IMG/VR virus record: IMGVR_UViG_2563366979_000001
Span: 1-18,357 of that record
Origin: a virus
Lineage: Duplodnaviria > Heunggongvirae > Uroviricota > Caudoviricetes
Length of the DNA: 18,357 nt
Reading direction: 5' to 3' (one strand)
The notes below the pieces were generated by a model. It ran no database searches. It worked only from the letters and a program-made list of their open reading frames with translations, and was not told the origin of the DNA. Positions 9,379 through 18,357 of the stretch are shown piece by piece (the first letter of the stretch is position 1; each line of letters begins with the position of its first letter). The position numbers and the translations under genes were made by a program.

Positions 9379-9515
9379 TGTTTGAGTTTTATATGGCAGA
9401 ACTTCTTCGCCACCGCTGGAGGCGTCTGCGATTATATCGTTTCCCCGGTTCTGTTTTGACCGATTACCGAATACTGAAGAATTACGCCAAAACCCTGACA
9501 GGAGCAGGAGTATGA
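9378..9515 (+). CDS. ylcG: YlcG small protein (45 aa), not in ORF track
   Basis: Manually translated: [48 protein letters not shown] overlaps the rusA stop (TGATG); same position as ylcG in K-12 DLP12. Confidence 0.65.
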   Translation: MFEFYMAELLRHRWRRLRLYRFPGSVLTDYRILKNYAKTLTGAGV

Positions 9516-9600
9516 AGTCAGAGATAACAATCAACTAATACTGTTTTGTTGATTTTTGCTTGTAATTGGCGTTCTGGTCTGATTTTTGTGGAGTAAGTTG

Positions 9601-9978
9601 ATGCGTGATATTCAGATGGTTCTTGAGCGTTGGGGAGCGTGGGCGGCTAATAATCATGAAGATGTGACCTGGTCGTCCATTGCCGCCGGTTTTAAGGGAT
9701 TAATTCCTTCAAAAGTAAAATCTCGCCCACAATGTTGTGACGATGACGCGATGATCATTTGCGGGTGCATGGCCCGTCTGAAAAAGAACAACAGCGATTT
9801 GCATGATTTATTGGTGGACTATTATGTCGGCGGCATGACTTTTATGGCGCTTGCACGTAAGCATGGGCGATCTGATTGTTGGGTTGGCAGGATGCTCCAG
9901 AAAGCTGAGGGCGTAGTGGAGGGTATGCTGATGGTGTTGGATCTCCGATTGGAGATGGATGCTGATTGTTCGAAATAA
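9601..9978 (+). CDS. quuD: Late-gene antiterminator Q (QuuD-like)
   Basis: ATG at 9601 with GGAG 7 nt upstream (ORF-track start at 9586 is a TTG); product [24 protein letters not shown]...[16 protein letters not shown] resembles DLP12 QuuD; position between ylcG and the lysis genes. Confidence 0.85.
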
Positions 9979-10076
9979 TTAAAGGAAAAGTTGCTGTCTG
10001 ATTGTCATTAGTCTAACATTTTAAATGTTGGAATCGCAACGTAGTTATTATCATATAACAGCTTGTTTCCTGATTT

Positions 10077-10105
10077 AGCCAGCCTCCCCAAAGGCTGGTT
10101 TTTTT
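10077..10105 (+). terminator. Intrinsic terminator downstream of Q (candidate tR')
   Basis: Stem CCAGCC (10079-10084) / GGCTGG (10093-10098), 8-nt loop, followed by seven T (10099-10105); oriented for plus-strand transcripts only. Confidence 0.6.
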
Positions 10106-10133
10106 CTAATAAGTATTATTTCGGGTAGGGATT

Positions 10134-10658
10134 TTATTGTTTAACCCATAATAATTCATTGACATTGAATCCCAACTTTTGAGCGGTTCGCGCATAGTCT
10201 GCTTTTACTTTATCTGGAATAGTTGGGGTCCTTGCCAGAATCCATAGGTATTCTCTGTTCGGACCACTGACAAGAGCATACTTATACTCATCATCCAGTT
10301 TGATTACATTATAGCCACCATAGAAGGGGCCAAAAAACGAAACCTTCAACGCTGCAGTTTTAGTATCTCCAGTAAAGTATGCTTTACCTTCGCTCTCGCT
10401 CCATTTATTTTTCGTTGGATCGTATCCACGGTTAAGTACACGAATCCCTCCGTCGTTCCGTTTTCCATAAGTAGCGCTGACCTGTTCCAGACCACGTTCG
10501 AACCGGTTCTCGAGGCGAGCTATTTCATACCATTTTCCGAGGTAGCGGTTGGCGTCAAAATTTGTAATCGGCTGCACACCTTTAGGTGGTGTCGGGGCCT
10601 TACATGCTATAAGAGTGAAAGAGAGTGCAATGCCAGTCAACACAGGCCATAACTTCAT
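10134..10658 (-). CDS. Bacterial lipocalin (Blc-like outer-membrane lipoprotein), divergent paralog
   Basis: 174-aa ORF; lipobox LIAC in signal peptide; lipocalin signature GKWYEIAR plus conserved SEGKAYFTG...LKVSFFGPFYGGYNVI...YLWILARTP blocks that match E. coli Blc as recalled. Confidence 0.85.
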   Translation of the reverse strand: MKLWPVLTGIALSFTLIACKAPTPPKGVQPITNFDANRYLGKWYEIARLENRFERGLEQVSATYGKRNDGGIRVLNRGYDPTKNKWSESEGKAYFTGDTKTAALKVSFFGPFYGGYNVIKLDDEYKYALVSGPNREYLWILARTPTIPDKVKADYARTAQKLGFNVNELLWVKQ

Positions 10659-10690
10659 AATAAATCCTGTACTTTTGATAGTTGAGAGTA

Positions 10691-10740
10691 AGTATGAAAG
10701 ATAGATGATTACGACCGATCACTTAAAGAACTTTCATACT
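10691..10740. promoter_or_regulatory. Perfect 10-bp inverted repeat AGTATGAAAG / CTTTCATACT separated by 30 bp, in the divergent promoter region between the lipocalin and YbgA-like genes
   Basis: Read directly: 10691-10700 and 10731-10740 are exact reverse complements. Confidence 0.4.
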
Positions 10741-10850
10741 ATATTAGGAATAGTCCATAACAGAAAAATTGTCAGTGATGACGCCAGAAAGGCAATTTAT
10801 TCCGTGCACTACACAGTTTATGTGTTAATGAATTAGTCAAGGGGGAGAAT

Positions 10851-11810
10851 ATGATAAAAAAACCTGTGATTGGAATCAGCGGTTGTTTGGCCGGTTCTGC
10901 TGTTCGTTTTGATGGTGGTCACAAAAGAGCTGACTTTTTAATGGACAAATTAGTGGAATGGGTAACATTCAGACCAGTATGTCCGGAAATGGCTATAGGG
11001 CTGCCAGTTCCGCGTCCTGCTCTACGTCTTGTGCGCTCGACGCAAGGAAATATACGGATGTGTTTCAGCTACGACCAGAATGAGGATGTGACAGAGAGAA
11101 TGACAGAGTTTAGTCGTTCTTATATGGACAAATTAAAGGATGTATCGGGGTTTGTGGTTTGTGCTAAATCTCCCAGCTGTGGCATGGAGCGCGTGCGTGT
11201 CTATGATGAAAATGGTAATCGAGGTCGTAAAGATGGAGTGGGACTATTTACGAGCACTTTGATGGAAAAGTTTTCCTGGCTACCGGTTGAAGAGGATGGG
11301 CGATTACATGATCCAGTGCTTCGTGAGAATTTTGTTGAAAGAGTTTTTGCTTTGCATGAGCTCAATCACCTTTACAAGGAGAAATTATCAAGAAGAGAGT
11401 TATTAGCTTTTCATAGTCGTTATAAGCTTCAGTTGTTGGCGCATAGTCAGGCAGGCTATAAAGATATGGGACCATTTGTGGCTGCAATACACGAGTGGGC
11501 GGACCTTGAATCATACTTTGAGGTGTATCGTGATAAGCTGATGGCGATTCTCAGAAAACCTGCATCACGTAAAAATCACACGAATGTGCTGATGCATATA
11601 CAGGGGTATTTTAGTAACTACTTAAGTACACGCCAGCGTAAAGAGTTGAGAGAGGTTATACTTAACTATCGTTCTGGCACATTGCCTCTTCTTGCGCCGT
11701 TGACTCTGCTGAAGCATTATCTGGGTGAGTATCCTAATGATTACTTGCTTACACAGAATTACTTCGATCCCTATCCGGACGAACTGGCTCTAAGACTGAT
11801 GGTAAATTAA
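10851..11810 (+). CDS. DUF523-DUF1722 protein, YbgA/RudS-family putative [4Fe-4S] thiouridine desulfidase
   Basis: 319-aa ORF with strong SD GGGGGAG; N-terminal block GISGCLAGSAVRFDGGHK...RPVCPEMAIGLPVPRPALRL...VVCAKSPSCGMERVRV with Cys12/Cys44/Cys104 spaced like the cluster ligands of TudS-type desulfidases; C-terminal half resembles the DUF1722 part of E. coli YbgA. Confidence 0.8.
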   Translation: MIKKPVIGISGCLAGSAVRFDGGHKRADFLMDKLVEWVTFRPVCPEMAIGLPVPRPALRLVRSTQGNIRMCFSYDQNEDVTERMTEFSRSYMDKLKDVSGFVVCAKSPSCGMERVRVYDENGNRGRKDGVGLFTSTLMEKFSWLPVEEDGRLHDPVLRENFVERVFALHELNHLYKEKLSRRELLAFHSRYKLQLLAHSQAGYKDMGPFVAAIHEWADLESYFEVYRDKLMAILRKPASRKNHTNVLMHIQGYFSNYLSTRQRKELREVILNYRSGTLPLLAPLTLLKHYLGEYPNDYLLTQNYFDPYPDELALRLMVN

Positions 11811-12161
11811 TTGTATGCGATATCATCCAAAAGGATGAGTTCCTGCATGCAGGATATTTACAATCGTAAAAACTACACTATGATACCCAGAGTGTCAGTT
11901 TGTATAAAAACTCTGTTTACGCTGAAGAAACCATTGAGATGCAACTTAAAGTTGGTAAACATGTCAGTCAAAATATATAATATTATGATTCCACGCAGCT
12001 ATATATAATATAACAGATTGGTTTAATAATTTGTCTTTGTGAGTTAAATACATAATTTTATACTTGTGATGCAATGAGATTTTCCTTATTGTTGAACTGG
12101 CGAATATTGATTTTCCACCTATACTTACCTGGTGTAACCCCAATGATATCAGGTGGATAAT

Positions 12162-12893
12162 ATGCCATACATATGTTCTATCATTTTGGTGTTGAACTCG
12201 TTTGATGTCCGAATTGGTAAAGAAGATATTTTGTTTAAAAAAGGAAGTGCTGTTCTCATTGATTACAATTTAAAAGATTTTTTTTCACCAAATATAGATC
12301 ATGTAATGATCGTAGATGTTGAAGAGAAAACAGTTAATGATTTCTTTAAAAGCAACACACTCTCACCTTTTTCTGTAAGAAGGTTTTATCCGGCATACTT
12401 GATGGTGGAATGTGAAGATTTTTCATTGTTAAAGAACTTGATTGCATGCTTGAATTGTGATGGCAGAACTGTGGATGTTGTTAGAAATCAAATATCACTT
12501 GCATGTCTTGCTATCTTATCTTCAGAGAAAATAGTGCAAAGTTTTTTATTTGGATGTCTTAATAGTTTAGGAAGTAAAGTTAAGGCTATTATTCACACGG
12601 ATATATCTGCAGCATGGAGACTTTGTGATATATCTTCAAGGCTGTATCTGAGTGAAAGTCTGTTAAAAAGAAAATTAAAGCACGAAGGCTTATCATTTAG
12701 TAAATTAATTCTTGAAGAGCGAATGGTGATGGCGGAAAGGTTATTAAGCTACAATTTATATTCTGTTGGAAAAGTTGCTGAGATATGCGGTTATGAAAAC
12801 ACGTCATATTTTGTAAGTGTTTTCAGAAGATATTTTGGTGTTCCTCCCCATCAATATTCATCAAGATTTTTTTTAGAAAAAGAAATGATGTAA
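12162..12893 (+). CDS. AraC/XylS-family transcriptional regulator, AppY-like paralog
   Basis: C-terminal AraC-type HTH (LKRKLKHEGLSFSKLILEERMVMAERLL...VAEICGYENTSYFVSVFRRYFGVPP); N-terminus alignable with AppY (YICS.., FKK); ATG 12162 preceded by AGGTGG (ORF-track start 12153 is a GTG inside the SD). Confidence 0.8.
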   Translation: MPYICSIILVLNSFDVRIGKEDILFKKGSAVLIDYNLKDFFSPNIDHVMIVDVEEKTVNDFFKSNTLSPFSVRRFYPAYLMVECEDFSLLKNLIACLNCDGRTVDVVRNQISLACLAILSSEKIVQSFLFGCLNSLGSKVKAIIHTDISAAWRLCDISSRLYLSESLLKRKLKHEGLSFSKLILEERMVMAERLLSYNLYSVGKVAEICGYENTSYFVSVFRRYFGVPPHQYSSRFFLEKEMM

Positions 12894-12954
12894 CGTGATG
12901 CGTTTTAATGATTTTGTGATTTTCGTATTTGATAATTGTATGATGCTTTCAGCT

Positions 12955-12986
12955 ACGCCAGAATAATCGCTGGCGTTTTTCTTTTT
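12955..12986 (+). terminator. Intrinsic terminator between the AraC gene and the holin
   Basis: Stem ACGCCAG (12955-12961) / CTGGCGT (12970-12976), 8-nt loop, followed by TTTTTCTTTTT (to 12986). Confidence 0.65.
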
Positions 12987-13082
12987 GAATAGATGTTCAA
13001 GCCTTACGCTAATGTAACTTCTATACCTTTCCCTCTTCGTTCCGAACCGTGTACACCATCCGTTATTTGCGGAGGTGAGACT

Positions 13083-13298
13083 ATGAAATCCATGGACAAG
13101 TTAACAACGGGCATTGCCTACGGCACCTCCGCAGGCAGTGCTGGCTACTGGTTTTTACAGTGGCTTGATCAGGTCAGTCCATCACAGTGGGCTGCTATTG
13201 GTGTGCTGGGAAGTCTGGTTCTGGGCTTCCTGACTTATCTGACAAATCTGTACTTCAAAATCAGAGAAGACAAGCGTAAGGCTGCGAGAGGTGAATAA
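13083..13298 (+). CDS. essD: Class II pinholin, phage 21 S-type (S21 71/68) with dual-start motif
   Basis: 71-aa product [71 protein letters not shown] is near-identical to phage 21 S / K-12 EssD as recalled; Met1-Lys-Ser-Met4 dual start; SD GGAGGTGA; the ORF-track upstream start at 12993 is rejected. Confidence 0.9.
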
Positions 13299-13504
13299 TG
13301 TCGCCATCATTACGCAAGGCTGTTGCAGCTGCTATTGGTGGTGGGGCTGTTGCCATAGCGTCTGTGCTTATCACTGGTCCGAGTGGTGACGATGGTCTGG
13401 AAGGTGTCAGCTACATACCATATAAAGATATCGTTGGCGTATGGACTGTATGTTACGGGCACACCGGAAAAGACATTATGCTCGGTAAAACGTATGCTGG
13501 TTGA
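13298..13504 (+). pseudogene. rrrD: SAR endolysin (R21/RrrD-type lysozyme) truncated after about codon 66 by a deletion
   Basis: 68-aa [69 protein letters not shown] then AG-stop; matches the SAR domain and E35/D44/T50 region of RrrD/R21 but lacks the remaining roughly 100 residues; start overlaps the essD stop (TAATG). Confidence 0.8.
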
Positions 13505-15665
13505 AGGTTTTCCGCCTTCACATGCCGGGACCATTACCGTCTATGAAGGCTCCAGACCAGGTACGCTGAATGATTTTCTCGGTGCCATGACGGAAGATGA
13601 TGTCATGCCGGAGGCATTGCGTCGTTTTGAGGAAATGGTGGAAGAAGCGGCACGCAACGCTGAAGCCGCCTCTCAGAGCGCAGCGGCGGCAAAGAAATCC
13701 GAAACTGCAGCGGCATCATCGAAGAATGCGGCGAAAACCTCAGAAACGAATGCAGCTAACAGCGCACAGGCGGCAGCGGCCTCGCAGACTGCATCGGCAA
13801 ATTCCGCGACAGCAGCTAAAAAATCAGAAACCAACGCGAAAAATAGCGAGACAGCAGCAAAGACGAGCGAAACCAACGCAAAGTCCAGCCAGACGGCAGC
13901 GAAAACCAGCGAAACGAATGCCAAAGCCAGTGAAACTGCGGCGAAAAACAGCCAGGTTGCAGCAGCTGAAAGCGAGAGCGCAGCAGCCGGTTCTGCGACT
14001 TCAGCAGCTGGATCAGCAACTGCTGCGGCTAACAGCCAGAAAGCTGCGAAGACGAGTGAAACTAACGCAAAGTCCAGCCAGACGGCAGCGAAGACCAGCG
14101 AAACGAATGCCAAAGCCAGCGAAACTGCGGCAAAAAACAGTCAGGATGCAGCGGCCCAAAGCGAGAGTGCCGCAGCTGGTTCTGCAAGTGCGGCAGCTAA
14201 TAGCCAAAAAGCTGCAAAAACCAGTGAAACTAACGCAAAGACGAGTGAAACAAAAGCAGCAGCCAGCGAGACAGAAGCAACGTCAGCCGCAACAAGAGCA
14301 GAGAATGCAGCCCGGATTGCAGAAGATGTCGCTGATCCTGCTTCAGTCCCTCCGCTTCCTGATATCTGGCTACCCTTGAATGATTCTCTGGAAGCGATAA
14401 CAGGGTATGCGCCGGGGTATAAAACAATAACCATCGGTAGTGATGAAATCACTGTGCCAGTTAATGGAATATGTCAGTTTAGCCGGGCTTCATCAGCAAC
14501 GTATATTGATAAGTCCGGGCATATTACCGTGGCAGGTAATAACGTTCCTCGTTTTGAAAAATATGGTTTACTGATAGAGAATCAGCGAACAAACATGTTC
14601 GTAAATAGTTTTAATCCTGATGCCTGGAATAAAAGCGGTGGTATATCTGTAACATCATCAACAGATGAATTTGAGTTTAAATATGGACGTTTCACAGTAG
14701 GAAGCGACATAGCAGGAACGACAACAGGGAGAAATATATGCACAGTTGCTGGTAATAAAGGCATAGATGTGACTGGCGATGATCAGTACAGTAAAGGTCC
14801 GTATGTTACCGCGTCGTTCAGGGTAAGAAGTGATCTCAATGTTCGCGCACGTATCCGTTTTGAACGGTATAACTCGGAAGGATACACTTTTCTTTGTGAC
14901 GCCTATTTGTCATTACAGACCCGTGAACTACAAATTACTGGTGGCAATGCCCAGCTATTAACAGCAAACTTTGAAATCGACCCTGGAAGTGGATGGATAT
15001 ATTTTCAGGCAACACTGAAATGTCTGCCAGAATGGGGAATGGTTGGTACGCAGCTGCAAATTGCAGCCGACAGAGCTGTGGGGTCTTTTGCAACAGGTGA
15101 CTGGATAGAAGTAACCACCCCGCAATTCGAGTATGGTGCCTGTGCAACTTCCTTCATCATAACTACAACAGAGCCAGCGACTCGTGCATCAGATTTATGT
15201 AAATTTCCGCTGATGAAAAATATGTATACCATGCCTTTTACGTTCATGGTGGAAGTCCATAAAAACTGGTTTATTTCTCATAATGCTGCACCGCGCGTAA
15301 TTGATACAGAAAACCATCAGTCAGGTGCTCCATTTATCATGGGATTTGGCTCTTCTGGAACTATCAGTCAGGACGGTTATCCCTATTGTGATATAGGCGG
15401 GGCTAACCGGCGTGTATATGAGTCATGCGGAGTAAGAGATCTCGTTATGGGATTCAGGGTTAAGGCTGACGGCATGACATGCTCATTTGCAAATAAGCAT
15501 ATAAGCACAGAAACAAAAACAGTATGGAAATATATTCGTGAAGCTGCTGTGATTCGTATCGGGGGGCAAACGACGACAGGATTGCGACACCTTAATGGTC
15601 ATATAAAAAATCTCCGTTTCTGGAACAGAGCATTGTCAGATACGCAGCTTAAGGAATACGTATAA
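13494..15665 (+). CDS. Side tail fibre protein (lambda Stf-like), N-terminally truncated, with a LamG/concanavalin-like C-terminal domain; possibly a non-expressed remnant
   Basis: From about 13497 the frame reads [34 protein letters not shown]..., matching lambda Stf from about residue 38; Ala/Ser/Thr-rich SETNAK repeats; C-terminus ends [17 protein letters not shown] (LamG-like motif); upstream part of the 760-aa ORF is the rrrD region in another frame; first in-frame ATG at 13494 has no SD. Confidence 0.7.
13867..14223 (+). repeat. Two imperfect tandem repeats of about 170-190 bp inside stf, encoding the Ala-rich shaft
   Basis: Unit ...[42 protein letters not shown]...AANSQKAAK occurs twice (nt about 13867-14055 and 14056-14223), one copy with a 21-nt indel. 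Confidence 0.6.
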
Positions 15666-15934
15666 TGCGGGATATAACATTACGATTCGATAACAGAGAA
15701 CAGTTTAACGCAATTGTATATGACAGTGGCCTGTTCAGTCTTGAAGAAGAAAATGGGGTTCTTGTTGATGTTATTGGCTGCATTATCGATTACGAGGAGC
15801 CAGAAAACGAAGGATGTACAGGCATTGAGCGCGGTGGTTTTTTCGTAAACATGAGGATTGTTGATGGCAGTAAAAACATATCTTCTTTAATGCCTTTCAT
15901 TACGACAGATCAGCATGTAAGGACATGGGCTTAA
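15665..15934 (+). CDS. Hypothetical protein (89 aa), translationally coupled to stf; possibly a tail-fibre accessory protein
   Basis: ATG overlaps the stf stop (TAATG); no recognisable motif. Confidence 0.45.
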   Translation: MRDITLRFDNREQFNAIVYDSGLFSLEEENGVLVDVIGCIIDYEEPENEGCTGIERGGFFVNMRIVDGSKNISSLMPFITTDQHVRTWA

Positions 15935-15946
15935 TGGAGTAAGACA

Positions 15947-16630
15947 ATGGTTACAAAAACAGTAATTCCGGGAGACATCACCACGCTAAAGGGAGATATT
16001 TCCTCAATTAACGGAAAAGTATCAACGCTTCAGACTGAGATGACCAGTGCAAAGCAGGATATCAGCTCCAGATACACAAAAACTGAAGTTGATAATAAGC
16101 TGAAAAACAAAGTGGAAGTGAACGATCTGGAAAGTGGTCGTTATGGCGGAGATTTTTACCCGCTGACTGGCCGTGAAGCGTTTTATTTATGGGGATTGGG
16201 CACAACTACAGCGGCGGCAAATCTTTATCTTAATCCTGACCCTGCAATTTCGTCTGTGCTGCGGTCAACATCGTCTATCCGCTATAAACATTCAGTAGAG
16301 ACGATAGATTCAGAGCACGCCGATCTCATTTTCAGGATGCGCCCTGTGTGGTACAGGTCGCAATGCGAAAATGACAGGCGTGACTGGGGATTCTATGGAT
16401 TGATTGCCGAGGAAGTAGGAGAAATTGCCCCTCAGTTTGTTCACTGGCGACCAGCCAACGAAGATGATGCACCGGAAACCATTTCCAGCAATGGCCTTGT
16501 TGCCGAAGGTGTAATGTACGAACGTCTGGTTGTTCCACTGATTCACCATATCCAGAAACTGACTGAAAGAGTTGATGAACTTGAGTCAGAATTGAAGTTG
16601 TTATCAACTTCCCAAAGCGATATCGGATAA
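15947..16630 (+). CDS. Small tail-fibre/tailspike-like protein with C-terminal peptidase-S74 intramolecular chaperone domain
   Basis: 227-aa ORF, GGAG 7 nt upstream; C-terminal SSIRYKHSVETIDSEHADLIFRMRPVWYR...GFYGLIAEEVGEIAPQFV...GVMYERLVVPLIHHIQKLTERVDELESELKLL fits the S74 chaperone-domain pattern (S-x-R-x-K ... GLIAQEV ... Y..L.PLLIEA.KEL); N-terminal about 110 aa looks coiled-coil-like. Confidence 0.7.
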   Translation: MVTKTVIPGDITTLKGDISSINGKVSTLQTEMTSAKQDISSRYTKTEVDNKLKNKVEVNDLESGRYGGDFYPLTGREAFYLWGLGTTTAAANLYLNPDPAISSVLRSTSSIRYKHSVETIDSEHADLIFRMRPVWYRSQCENDRRDWGFYGLIAEEVGEIAPQFVHWRPANEDDAPETISSNGLVAEGVMYERLVVPLIHHIQKLTERVDELESELKLLSTSQSDIG

Positions 16631-16640
16631 AGGAGGAGTA

Positions 16641-16934
16641 ATGGATATAACACCTTTTCTTCATGCGCTTTGTGCTGTGGCTGCGCAGGTACTGATTGGC
16701 CTTTTTACCGGAAACTGGGCTTACGGGGCGATAGCCGGTTGTACGTTCTTCATTGCGCGTGAACACACCCAGGCAGAATATCGCTGGATTGAAATGTTCG
16801 GGCATGGCAAGCGAATGAATATGCCGTGGTGGGGCGGTTTTGATCCGCGCGCATGGGATGTGGCAAGCCTGATGGATTTTGCTGTGCCGGTGGTGGCGTG
16901 TCTGCTGGTCTGGCTGTTGGTTAATCGTGGGTGA
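16641..16934 (+). CDS. Small integral membrane protein (97 aa, about 3 predicted TM segments), function unknown
   Basis: Strong SD AGGAGG 6 nt before ATG; hydrophobic stretches at residues about 6-22, 26-39 and 77-94. Confidence 0.55.
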   Translation: MDITPFLHALCAVAAQVLIGLFTGNWAYGAIAGCTFFIAREHTQAEYRWIEMFGHGKRMNMPWWGGFDPRAWDVASLMDFAVPVVACLLVWLLVNRG

Positions 16935-16944
16935 AAAAAGGTGA

Positions 16945-17064
16945 GCTGTATATGCAACGGAGGAAGAAAACTCGTTGCTGGAAGCCTGGAAGAAGTATCG
17001 GGTGTTGCTGAACCGTGTGGACACTTCCGTAGCACCAGATATCGAGTGGCTTATTCAACCATAA
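16945..17064 (+). pseudogene. tfaX: 3' fragment of a tail-fibre assembly (Tfa) gene
   Basis: Open frame [40 protein letters not shown] matches the conserved C-terminus of lambdoid Tfa proteins ([30 protein letters not shown] as recalled for TfaE); no start codon or N-terminal region present. Confidence 0.55.
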
Positions 17065-17607
17065 TAAACAGTATGTATATCATAGGTTATTAATTGTGAG
17101 TTTTTTCGGTGTGTTATTTGTTTGTTTGATGTTATGCTTTTGCGCCCCAAAAGGTTGTTTAGATGTATTTTATCAATTGATTTTCAATATCGTTTAATAA
17201 AGAAAAATTAAGCAAGTTGGATGTTGATTTTTTGTTAATTGAATGGTTCTAATAATGTTTTTTTACTGTTGTTGAATGTGACTTGATAAGAAATGCAAGT
17301 AAAAATGATGCTCTTTTTATTTTAAATTCAAACGGTTGATATATATAGCAAGAGGTTTCAGGTGCGTTGTAGTGAGTTTATGTTAATAAAAAGCATAGTA
17401 AGCGTTGAAAAATGTAACTTTGAAATACGTTAGAATAAAAAACAATATACATATAATAATTTAATCTTAAATGAAATTTATTAAAATTTGCAAACTATAA
17501 TTTTGTGTATAAAAATATAAATGCACATCATCCTGATTATGATTGTGTATTTAATTGGTTGTTATTTGACTACTATCAACTTGCTTTAATTTTATGATAG
17601 GTGCAAG

Positions 17608-18357
17608 ATGGATTATGTTTGCTCCGTAGTTTTCATCTGTCAATCATTTGATTTAATTATAAACAGGAGAGTTATCTCGTTCAAAAAAAATTCATTGTTT
17701 ATTGTAAACGACAAAATTAGAAGGGAGTTACCAGTATGCCCCTCTAAACTAAGAATTGTTGATATAGATAAGAAAACATGTTTATCCTTTTTTATCGACG
17801 TGAATAATGATCTGCCTGGCAAATTTACTCTTGATAAGAATGGCTATATTGCTGAAGAGGAACCTCCATTATCGCTTGTTTTTTCTCTGTTTGAAGGGAT
17901 TAAAATAGCAGACTCACACTCCCTTTGGTTAAAAGAAAGACTATGTATATCCTTACTTGCCATGTTCAAAAAACGCGAAAGTGTAAATTCATTTATACTA
18001 ACAAATATAAATACATTTACCTGTAAAATTACTGGAATAATCAGTTTTAATATTGAGCGGCAATGGCATTTAAAAGATATTGCGGAATTGATTTATACGA
18101 GTGAAAGTTTAATAAAAAAAAGATTAAGAGATGAAGGAACGTCATTTACTGAAATATTGAGAGATACTAGGATGAGGTATGCAAAAAAACTCATAACTTC
18201 AAACTCTTATTCTATTAATGTCGTAGCCCAGAAATGTGGCTATAACAGTACTTCATATTTCATATGTGCATTTAAAGATTATTATGGTGTCACGCCATCT
18301 CATTATTTTGAGAAAATAATCGGCGTCACAGATGGAATAAACAAAACAATTGACTGA
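17608..18357 (+). CDS. appY: AraC-family regulator AppY; the TGA stop is the last three bases of the window
   Basis: 249-aa [36 protein letters not shown]... near-identical to K-12 AppY as recalled; preceded by about 540 bp of very AT-rich DNA. Confidence 0.9.

Follow-up and report, generated by a model that had tools for sequence, protein, structure and literature searches.

The 18,357-nt stretch of DNA analysed here (the window) is 100% identical to an NCBI scaffold of E. coli KTE54, a strain on which we found no literature, and it represents a lambdoid prophage of that strain, most probably at the argU/DLP12 site. At the left end lies the integrase gene intD (1–1164, minus strand), which is adjacent to argU in relatives, and positions 1–2041 are 98.6% identical to the region of E. 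coli WP4-S18-ESBL-07 that begins at intD beside tRNA-Arg. The argU gene itself is located outside the window and was observed only in relatives, while both intD and appY are inside. The latter gene (17608–18357, plus strand) encodes the AraC-family regulator found at the right end of DLP12-type prophages, and in the KTE54 source contig it is followed by ompT, envY, ybcH and nfrA. Since appY is at the right end, the stf side of the junction described below belongs to the same locus; from intD at the left end to appY-ompT-envY-nfrA at the right, the orientation is kept as in K-12, WP4-S18-ESBL-07 and THO-008. The gene for the late antiterminator Q is intact (9586–9978, plus strand; Pfam PF06530, E 2.5e-51), and a terminator scan indicated a terminator-like hairpin 3' of it, at 10077–10100. 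Any late transcription through essD-rrrD'-stf' presumably originates in the Q region. No structured RNAs or tRNAs were found in the window.

The holin gene essD (13083–13298, plus strand) encodes an intact class II holin of the phage 21 S type (71 aa; Pfam PF04971, E 3.5e-35); its DNA is 99.8% identical to annotated essD and its stop codon overlaps the start of the next gene (TAATG). That gene, rrrD' (13298–13504, plus strand), is a truncated form of the SAR endolysin gene, with 68 aa instead of the normal 165, as indicated by alignment, Pfam and a PDB match. Its translation reads MSPSLRK...GKTYAG*, where codons 1–66 are authentic and the following Ala-Gly-stop is read from stf DNA. The first-pass annotation had described an RrrD-like match through codon 66 (GKTY) with a stop two codons later, and this was borne out: residues 1–66 are identical to the 165-aa RrrD of WP4-S18-ESBL-07. 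Residues 1–67 match PDB chains 3HDE and 4ZPU ('Lysozyme RrrD') with E ~1e-37, whereas Pfam PF00959 is covered only at profile positions 3–35 of 125. The N-terminal SAR segment and the catalytic-triad region are present, but the ~165-aa lysozyme domain is not complete. Judged by its sequence, rrrD' is thus a pseudogene fragment and not a functional member of the SAR endolysins, although GenBank labels it 'lysozyme [E. coli KTE54]' (ELG08480.1). An ORF of 74 aa on the minus strand (13310–13534) also crosses the junction and was treated as a mechanical ORF.

The sequence that follows is stf' (13494–15665, plus strand), a side-tail-fibre gene devoid of its first 62 codons, as defined by alignments and Pfam PF08400. 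The cut lies within codon 63 of the 785-codon gene, at a position corresponding to residue 62 of lambda Stf (orf-401). Against residues 63–785 of the Stf of THO-008 the alignment is ungapped, with 711 of 723 residues identical, and against lambda orf-401 it starts from residue 62, with 50% identity over the shaft. The Ala/Ser/Thr-rich repeat shaft and the C-terminal distal part are collinear with full-length Stf, while the N-terminal tail-attachment domain is incomplete: PF08400 is matched at profile positions 63–131 of 134 and residues 1–62 are missing in comparison to the 785-aa homologues. The match had originally been placed near residue 38 of Stf; this position has to be corrected to residue 62 (lambda) or 63 (785-aa prophage Stf), in agreement with PF08400, since the junction codon is number 38 of a mechanical ORF (13383–15665) starting at a GTG. 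That GTG at 13383 was rejected as the start of stf' (760-aa ORF), the first 37 codons being out-of-frame rrrD.

The junction converts stf codon 63 from CTG to ATG at 13494, in frame, and a 723-codon ORF results. It is because of this junction-made in-frame ATG that GenBank annotates a 723-aa 'phage tail fiber protein' (ELG08481.1). No Shine-Dalgarno sequence was found upstream of the junction ATG, while native stf has GGAG. In comparison to THO-008, stf' has 56 codons with synonymous and 11 with non-synonymous differences, and its frame is not interrupted by any frameshift or nonsense change; this pattern fits a divergence which, as far as the codon differences can tell, pre-dates a recent deletion. 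Three ORFs located 3' of stf' are intact (89, 227 and 97 aa; 15665–16934, plus strand), in the same order as in THO-008, and the 227-aa ORF carries a Peptidase_S74 chaperone domain.

By three-way alignment and BLAST coordinates, the deletion junction was placed at 13495|13496 (13495–13496, no strand), which confirms at base resolution the single junction previously located at about 13495–13500. The A at 13494 is derived from rrrD and the G at 13496 is stf sequence; the T between them (13495) occurs in both parents and represents the sole microhomology. Nucleotide 198 of rrrD is thus joined to nucleotide 188/189 of stf. Window positions 13000–13495 show 99.8% DNA identity to intact essD-rrrD, and positions 13495–14000 are 98.4% identical to genes annotated as 'prophage tail fiber N-terminal domain', with intact stf genes ranging from 97 to 98.4%. 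The BLAST segments (12978–13495 and 13495–14198) abut at one base, with E = 0 on either side and therefore far beyond chance, and the break falls on the same base in all of the ~30 genomes among the matches listed. Both Pfam domains, lysozyme and tail-fibre N, are cut in the middle at one nucleotide. The proposed alignment to full-length rrrD and stf therefore mapped the breakpoint exactly, with 1 nt of microhomology.

Intact prophages at the argU site (argU ... appY-ompT), with complete rrrD and stf, are present in WP4-S18-ESBL-07 and THO-008. Here, the two breakpoints are 21,578 bp apart in WP4-S18-ESBL-07 and ~21,724 bp apart in THO-008. The interval lost from KTE54 contains, in these relatives, Rz/Rz1, a variable block of small accessory genes, nohD, and the terminase, portal, head, tail, J and lom genes, as well as the 5' end of stf. 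The earlier statement that endolysin and stf are normally separated by Rz/Rz1, terminase, portal, head and tail genes thus holds in both intact relatives, and the comparison suggested at that stage found both genes complete, 21.6–21.7 kb apart and at the same chromosomal site. WP4-S18-ESBL-07 is the closest relative on the left side (99.5% identity over window positions 2342–13495), and THO-008 or APEC O1 on the right side (97.5–98.4%; 97.5% for THO-008 over 13495–18357). A near-identical undeleted ancestor was not found, the best complete-genome matches being mosaic (99.5% left, 97.5% right), so the length and content of the deleted segment are inferred from mosaic relatives.

The same element carries another deletion scar, independent of the first. 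At 2061–2342 (minus strand) a DGQHR-domain gene persists only as its 3' fragment, which at 2342 is fused to the last 81 nt of the replication gene P, with one A shared. This scar removes the recombination, immunity and replication region and is private, like the rrrD-stf junction. Both WP4-S18-ESBL-07 and THO-008 keep the early region missing at 2342 in addition to the 21.6–21.7 kb.

Taken together, the abutting homologies, the intact relatives, the truncated domains and the one-locus synteny support the deletion-scar interpretation put forward in the first-pass annotation. We are highly confident that KTE54 carries a strain-private internal deletion of ~21.6 kb in its argU-site lambdoid prophage, in which illegitimate joining of rrrD to stf left a cryptic remnant. 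The rrrD'-stf' junction is an ordinary, routine scar of prophage decay.

In order to characterize the surroundings of the breakpoints, 150 nt on either side of both were scanned in an intact relative, and no direct or inverted repeats beyond chance were found: the longest direct match was 7 nt and the longest inverted one 10 nt, while shuffled sequences gave a mean of 7.8 and a maximum of 11. No insertion sequence or nearby transposase ORF was found at the breakpoints either. Since there is neither a repeat nor an insertion sequence at these positions, the deletion was homology-independent, and an illegitimate end-joining or replication-slippage type of event joined rrrD to stf, either in one step or as the final one of several nested steps. 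A role of Chi was considered and rejected. The octamer GCTGGTTG (13496–13503), one mismatch from Chi, starts at the stf side of the junction, but as many as 24 one-mismatch Chi sites occur in the window; moreover, we assume that in this orientation it would protect the deleted, and not the retained, side from RecBCD entering in the lost region. The match was therefore treated as a coincidence.

The junction was searched for in other genomes and was found in 0 of 5,426 complete E. coli genomes, and the exact junction 34-mer was present in 0 GTDB species representatives and 0 JGI metagenome contigs. Exact-protein look-ups with rrrD' and stf' returned only KTE54 and Logan runs, with one NCBI contig per protein. 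This absence from any other genome would be in line with an assembly artefact, in which a short-read assembler misjoined the rrrD of one prophage to an stf belonging either to that prophage or to a different lambdoid one, e.g., at a collapsed repeat. KTE54 is indeed a scaffold-level short-read assembly, and similar rrrD and stf sequences occur in several lambdoid prophages (matching places per genome: median 3, up to 16). However, the Logan assembly of SRA run SRR640074 contains a 15.4-kb contig which is 100% identical across the junction, although its reads may be KTE54's own, in which case it is an independent assembly and not an independent isolate. A misjoin by repeat collapse requires shared sequence of at least k-mer length, which the parents do not offer: they share only 1 nt at the join and have no repeat in the 150 nt on either side. 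The presence of a second clean scar within the same element also fits real decay, and we regard a misassembly as very improbable. The multiple lambdoid prophages per genome could, on the other hand, have supplied copies of rrrD and stf for recombination between two prophages at separate chromosomal sites, with a large chromosomal deletion or inversion as the outcome, and the two sides of the junction do differ in their closest relatives. Lambdoid mosaicism explains these differing best matches, however, and single-locus markers are found on both flanks, in the order and orientation of THO-008, WP4-S18-ESBL-07 and K-12; exchange between two sites is thus exceedingly improbable.

The deletion within one prophage has evident effects on its genes. 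Of the 165 residues of the SAR endolysin only 66 remain, ahead of an early stop, and the tail-attachment domain of Stf has lost residues 1–62. The prophage would no longer be able to lyse the cell or to build particles, and the toxicity of the remaining holin EssD is probably blunted by the loss of both endolysin and spanin. It seems that stf' is a dead remnant, which would still be open only because the event is recent, and that the junction ATG is a chance by-product, from which there would be at most a low level of translation, coupled to the rrrD' stop located 8 nt further 3'. Along with the scar at 2342, the rrrD-stf junction grounds the prophage as a cryptic remnant.

The same features may be read as a selected exaptation, in which an expressed 723-aa truncated Stf and/or a host-beneficial 68-aa SAR peptide caused the scar to be retained. 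The ATG, exactly in frame and located 8 nt before the rrrD' stop, could permit translational coupling, and neither the 723-codon ORF nor the tail-fibre ORFs 3' of it are disrupted. In K-12, the essD-rrrD-rz lysis module of DLP12 is transcribed, affects vesicle production, biofilm and the cell wall, and has been proposed to be domesticated (PMC7918800). However, the scar is private to one strain, with no sign of spread or retention, the junction ATG is devoid of a Shine-Dalgarno sequence, and Stf' lacks about half of its tail-attaching domain in an element where no tail genes remain. Intactness of the ORFs is expected anyway for a recent event, and the synonymous excess (56 vs 11 codons) reflects pre-deletion divergence between functional phage genes. 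Retention by selection is therefore extremely improbable. There is a slim chance that a late transcript led by the holin gene, with the junction ATG in it, lets KTE54 make a free 723-aa Stf fragment without a tail and/or a SAR membrane peptide of 68 aa, with a new host role. Such a role might be binding to surfaces, masking of receptors, an effect on holin or vesicle activity, or supply of a fibre part to co-resident lambdoid phages; if true, a deletion scar would here have given rise to a gene start de novo.

The junction, read as a scar of decay, has little importance beyond annotation. ELG08480.1 (68 aa) and ELG08481.1 (723 aa) represent the two halves of a single scar, and both entries should be marked as pseudogene fragments. 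The element also provides a clean example of prophage grounding at base-pair resolution, with two independent deletions, neither of which shows more than 1 nt of microhomology. KTE54 is, moreover, a natural knockout, which shows that at least one natural isolate can do without the essD-rrrD-rz lysis module.

Compared with the phage 21 endolysin R/RrrD (PDB 3HDE, 3HDF, 4ZPU), rrrD' matches residues 1–66 with E ~1e-37. In R21 we take these residues to comprise the signal-anchor-release segment and the positions of catalytic Glu35, Asp44 and Thr50. Residues 67–165, ~60% of the lysozyme fold, are lacking, and rrrD' is thus not a plausible enzyme.

DLP12 of K-12 has the same locus and backbone (intD ... 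ybcN-ninE-ybcO-rusA-ylcG-Q ... essD-rrrD ... appY-ompT), and both it and the KTE54 element are lambdoid prophages which lost morphogenesis genes by internal deletion. The accessory genes differ, with emrE, ybcK/L/M and nmpC in DLP12 and an inverse autotransporter, a hydrolase, a lipocalin, a YbgA-like gene and an AraC-type gene in KTE54. While DLP12 keeps essD, full rrrD, rzpD/rzoD, borD and nohD, the lysis module of KTE54 is destroyed. In the late region of DLP12 the scar fuses the terminase fragment aaaD' to tfaD, whereas in KTE54 rrrD codon 66 is joined to stf codon 63; the view that this deletion differs from the one in K-12, where rzpD, borD and nohD are retained, was therefore correct. 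The same class of outcome is observed in the pig E. coli isolates Res13-Lact and Res13-Sevr (e.g., NZ_CP062895.1), in which an rrrD to lom' scar places the lysis cassette next to the tail-fibre region and everything from just past rrrD to within lom is missing. However, their breakpoints are independent, since rrrD is complete and its partner is the 3' part of lom and not stf codon 63, and the DNA is only ~85–86% identical to the window.

Comparison of window positions 13000-14000 with 5,426 complete E. coli genomes by megablast split the query at one base: positions 13000-13495 (query 1-496) matched annotated essD-rrrD at up to 99.8% identity, and positions 13495-14000 (query 496-1001) matched genes for a 'prophage tail fiber N-terminal domain-containing protein' at up to 98.4%. 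None of these genomes covered at least 80% of the query. In a three-way alignment with an intact relative, rrrD identity ends and stf identity begins at the same T (13495), the only base at the join common to both parents. The first-pass annotation had read 13298-13520 as a deletion scar joining an RrrD-like SAR endolysin gene to a Stf-like side-tail-fibre gene; we consider the scar real and that interpretation correct.

The truncated endolysin gene, rrrD' (68 codons, 13298-13504, translation MSPSLRK...GKTYAG*), overlaps with its start the stop (TAATG) of an intact holin gene, essD (13083-13298; 71 aa; Pfam Phage_holin_2_1, E 3.5e-35). As had been noticed from the sequence, the RrrD match extends through codon 66 and the frame stops two codons later; these 66 residues are identical to the first 66 of a 165-aa RrrD. 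Residues 1-67 matched PDB entries 3HDE and 4ZPU ('Lysozyme RrrD'; E ~1e-37), and only positions 3-35 of 125 in the Pfam Phage_lysozyme profile are spanned. The second frame is open from a mechanically called GTG at 13383 to 15665, and from 13497 it reads as Stf. The first-pass annotation had placed the start of Stf similarity near residue 38, which is the place of the junction codon in this GTG frame; the true start is residue 62/63. The alignment with the 785-aa Stf of strain THO-008 is ungapped over residues 63-785 (711 of 723 identical), three other full-length or partial homologues also align from residue 63 and lambda orf-401 from residue 62, and positions 63-131 of 134 of Pfam phage_tail_N are spanned. 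The fibre shaft contains internal direct repeats (13842-14009 vs 14031-14198, ~87% identical) which encode Ala/Ser/Thr-rich 'KTSETNAK' units.

The remnant, stf', differs from the THO-008 gene by 56 synonymous and 11 non-synonymous codons and has no frameshift or nonsense mutation relative to it; the ORFs downstream of it and appY are intact too. This pattern is what remains when functional phage genes have diverged and a deletion has then struck recently. Neither the synonymous excess nor the open frame speaks for selection acting on the remnant.

The same chromosomal site, flanked by argU-intD on one side and appY-ompT-envY-nfrA on the other, is occupied in two strains by lambdoid prophages that appear complete. 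Window positions 2342-13495 match WP4-S18-ESBL-07 at 99.5% identity, and 13495-18357 match THO-008 at 97.5%. Both flanks of the junction belong to one locus, which disfavours a rearrangement between prophages. The distance between the breakpoints is 21,578 bp in WP4-S18-ESBL-07 and ~21,724 bp in THO-008, and the loss of Rz/Rz1, terminase, portal, head and tail genes, proposed at first reading, holds against both. The interval comprises the 3' 60% of rrrD, Rz/Rz1, an accessory block that differs between the two strains (Rha in one, iss and ylcI in the other), nohD, the genes for the large terminase subunit, portal, protease, decoration, capsid and head-tail joining, the whole tail module, J, lom and stf codons 1-62.

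In the intact relative, no repeat in the 150 nt flanking each breakpoint on either side exceeded the shuffled controls: the longest common words were 7 nt (direct) and 10 nt (inverted), as against a mean of 7.8 and a maximum of 11 in shuffles. No insertion sequence or transposase was found near the junction. Because the parents overlap by a single T, no repeat rises above shuffles and no mobile element is present, the junction bears the signature of a homology-independent deletion, which may have occurred in one step or in several nested steps, both being compatible with the sequence. A Chi-like octamer, GCTGGTTG (13496-13503), one mismatch from GCTGGTGG, has the first base of the stf side as its own first base. 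A role for Chi was rejected, and the octamer is probably a coincidence, since such one-mismatch sites are frequent in the window (24 vs ~10.7 expected from shuffles) and its polarity is wrong for protecting the retained DNA.

An assembly artefact was also weighed. The 68-aa and 723-aa proteins have exact counterparts in E. coli KTE54, ELG08480.1 and ELG08481.1; positions 3298-18357 are 100% identical to a 20.2-kb stretch of NCBI scaffold KB733040.1 (GCA_000352345.1), and 4615-18357 to a 15.4-kb Logan contig assembled independently from SRR640074, possibly the same isolate. The 1-nt overlap of the parents leaves no substrate for a repeat-collapse misassembly, and we consider the junction real. 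It is absent from the 5,426 complete genomes, and its exact 34-mer is absent from GTDB species representatives and from JGI metagenome contigs; in the protein collection, each protein occurs on a single NCBI contig. The junction is a private, young event.

Only 66 residues of the endolysin are left, no spanin or morphogenesis gene remains, and about half of the Stf N-terminal attachment domain is missing; the element would be incapable of host lysis or particle production. As both the holin gene and that for the late antiterminator Q (9586-9978) are retained, a late transcript, if made, would read essD-rrrD'-stf'. The join converts stf codon 63 from CTG to ATG (13494-13496: A from rrrD, the common T, G from stf), 8 nt upstream of the rrrD' stop. 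Being in frame with stf', this ATG leads gene callers to a 723-aa 'tail fiber protein', as annotated in GenBank. It lacks a Shine-Dalgarno sequence, which native stf (GGAG) and rrrD (GAGAGG) both have, and we regard this ATG as a by-product.

The same prophage has a second private deletion scar, at 2342. Positions 1850-2342 are 100% identical to a TraR/DksA gene and the 3' end of a DGQHR-domain gene (2061-2342, minus strand) in other strains, and the sequence from 2342 on matches the final 81 nt of replication gene P of WP4-S18-ESBL-07, with one A common to both. This join was found in none of the 5,426 complete genomes. It removes the early region (recombination, immunity, replication), whose WP4-S18-ESBL-07 counterpart holds exo, bet, gam, kil, repressor, cro-like and O genes and most of P.

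DLP12, the cryptic prophage of E. coli K-12, occupies the same site and has a backbone in common with the KTE54 prophage. At the position of its emrE-ybcK-ybcL-ybcM, the window (2672-7663) carries accessory cargo: a 1,303-aa inverse autotransporter (intimin/invasin-like), whose gene has a near-identical 347-bp internal repeat (3983-4329 vs 4340-4686, 98%), and, on the opposite strand, a 347-aa alpha/beta hydrolase. Between Q and the holin (10134-12893) lie a lipocalin (minus strand), a YbgA-like gene (2-thiouracil desulfurase plus DUF1722) and an AraC-type regulator; this interval holds nmpC in K-12 and a gene annotated as porin OmpC in THO-008. Terminator-like hairpins stand just upstream of essD (12955-12976) and just downstream of Q (10077-10100), the latter fitting a putative pR'/tR' arrangement.

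Unlike the KTE54 prophage, DLP12 keeps full rrrD, rzpD, rzoD, borD, ybcV/W, ylcI and nohD, and in its late scar aaaD' is fused to tfaD; the KTE54 deletion is therefore independent, as the first-pass annotation had supposed. The pig E. coli strains Res13-Lact and Res13-Sevr carry a third scar of this class, again independent, in which full rrrD is joined to the 3' part of lom; in locus L003 (NZ_CP062895.1, 6217-9222) complete rrrD is followed by an 18-nt gap, the lom 3' fragment and then stf, annotated as an incomplete pseudogene without its C-terminus. Prophage 'grounding' and domestication proceed as a rule by internal deletion of structural genes (reviewed in PMC6379469). The rrrD'-stf' scar is a routine case of prophage decay, confined to one strain; its worth is in annotation, with two pseudogene fragments recognised, and in illustrating such decay at base-pair resolution. 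The DLP12 lysis module of K-12 has been reported as conserved and transcribed, with activity in vesicle and cell-wall physiology (PMC7918800); KTE54 represents a natural loss of that module.
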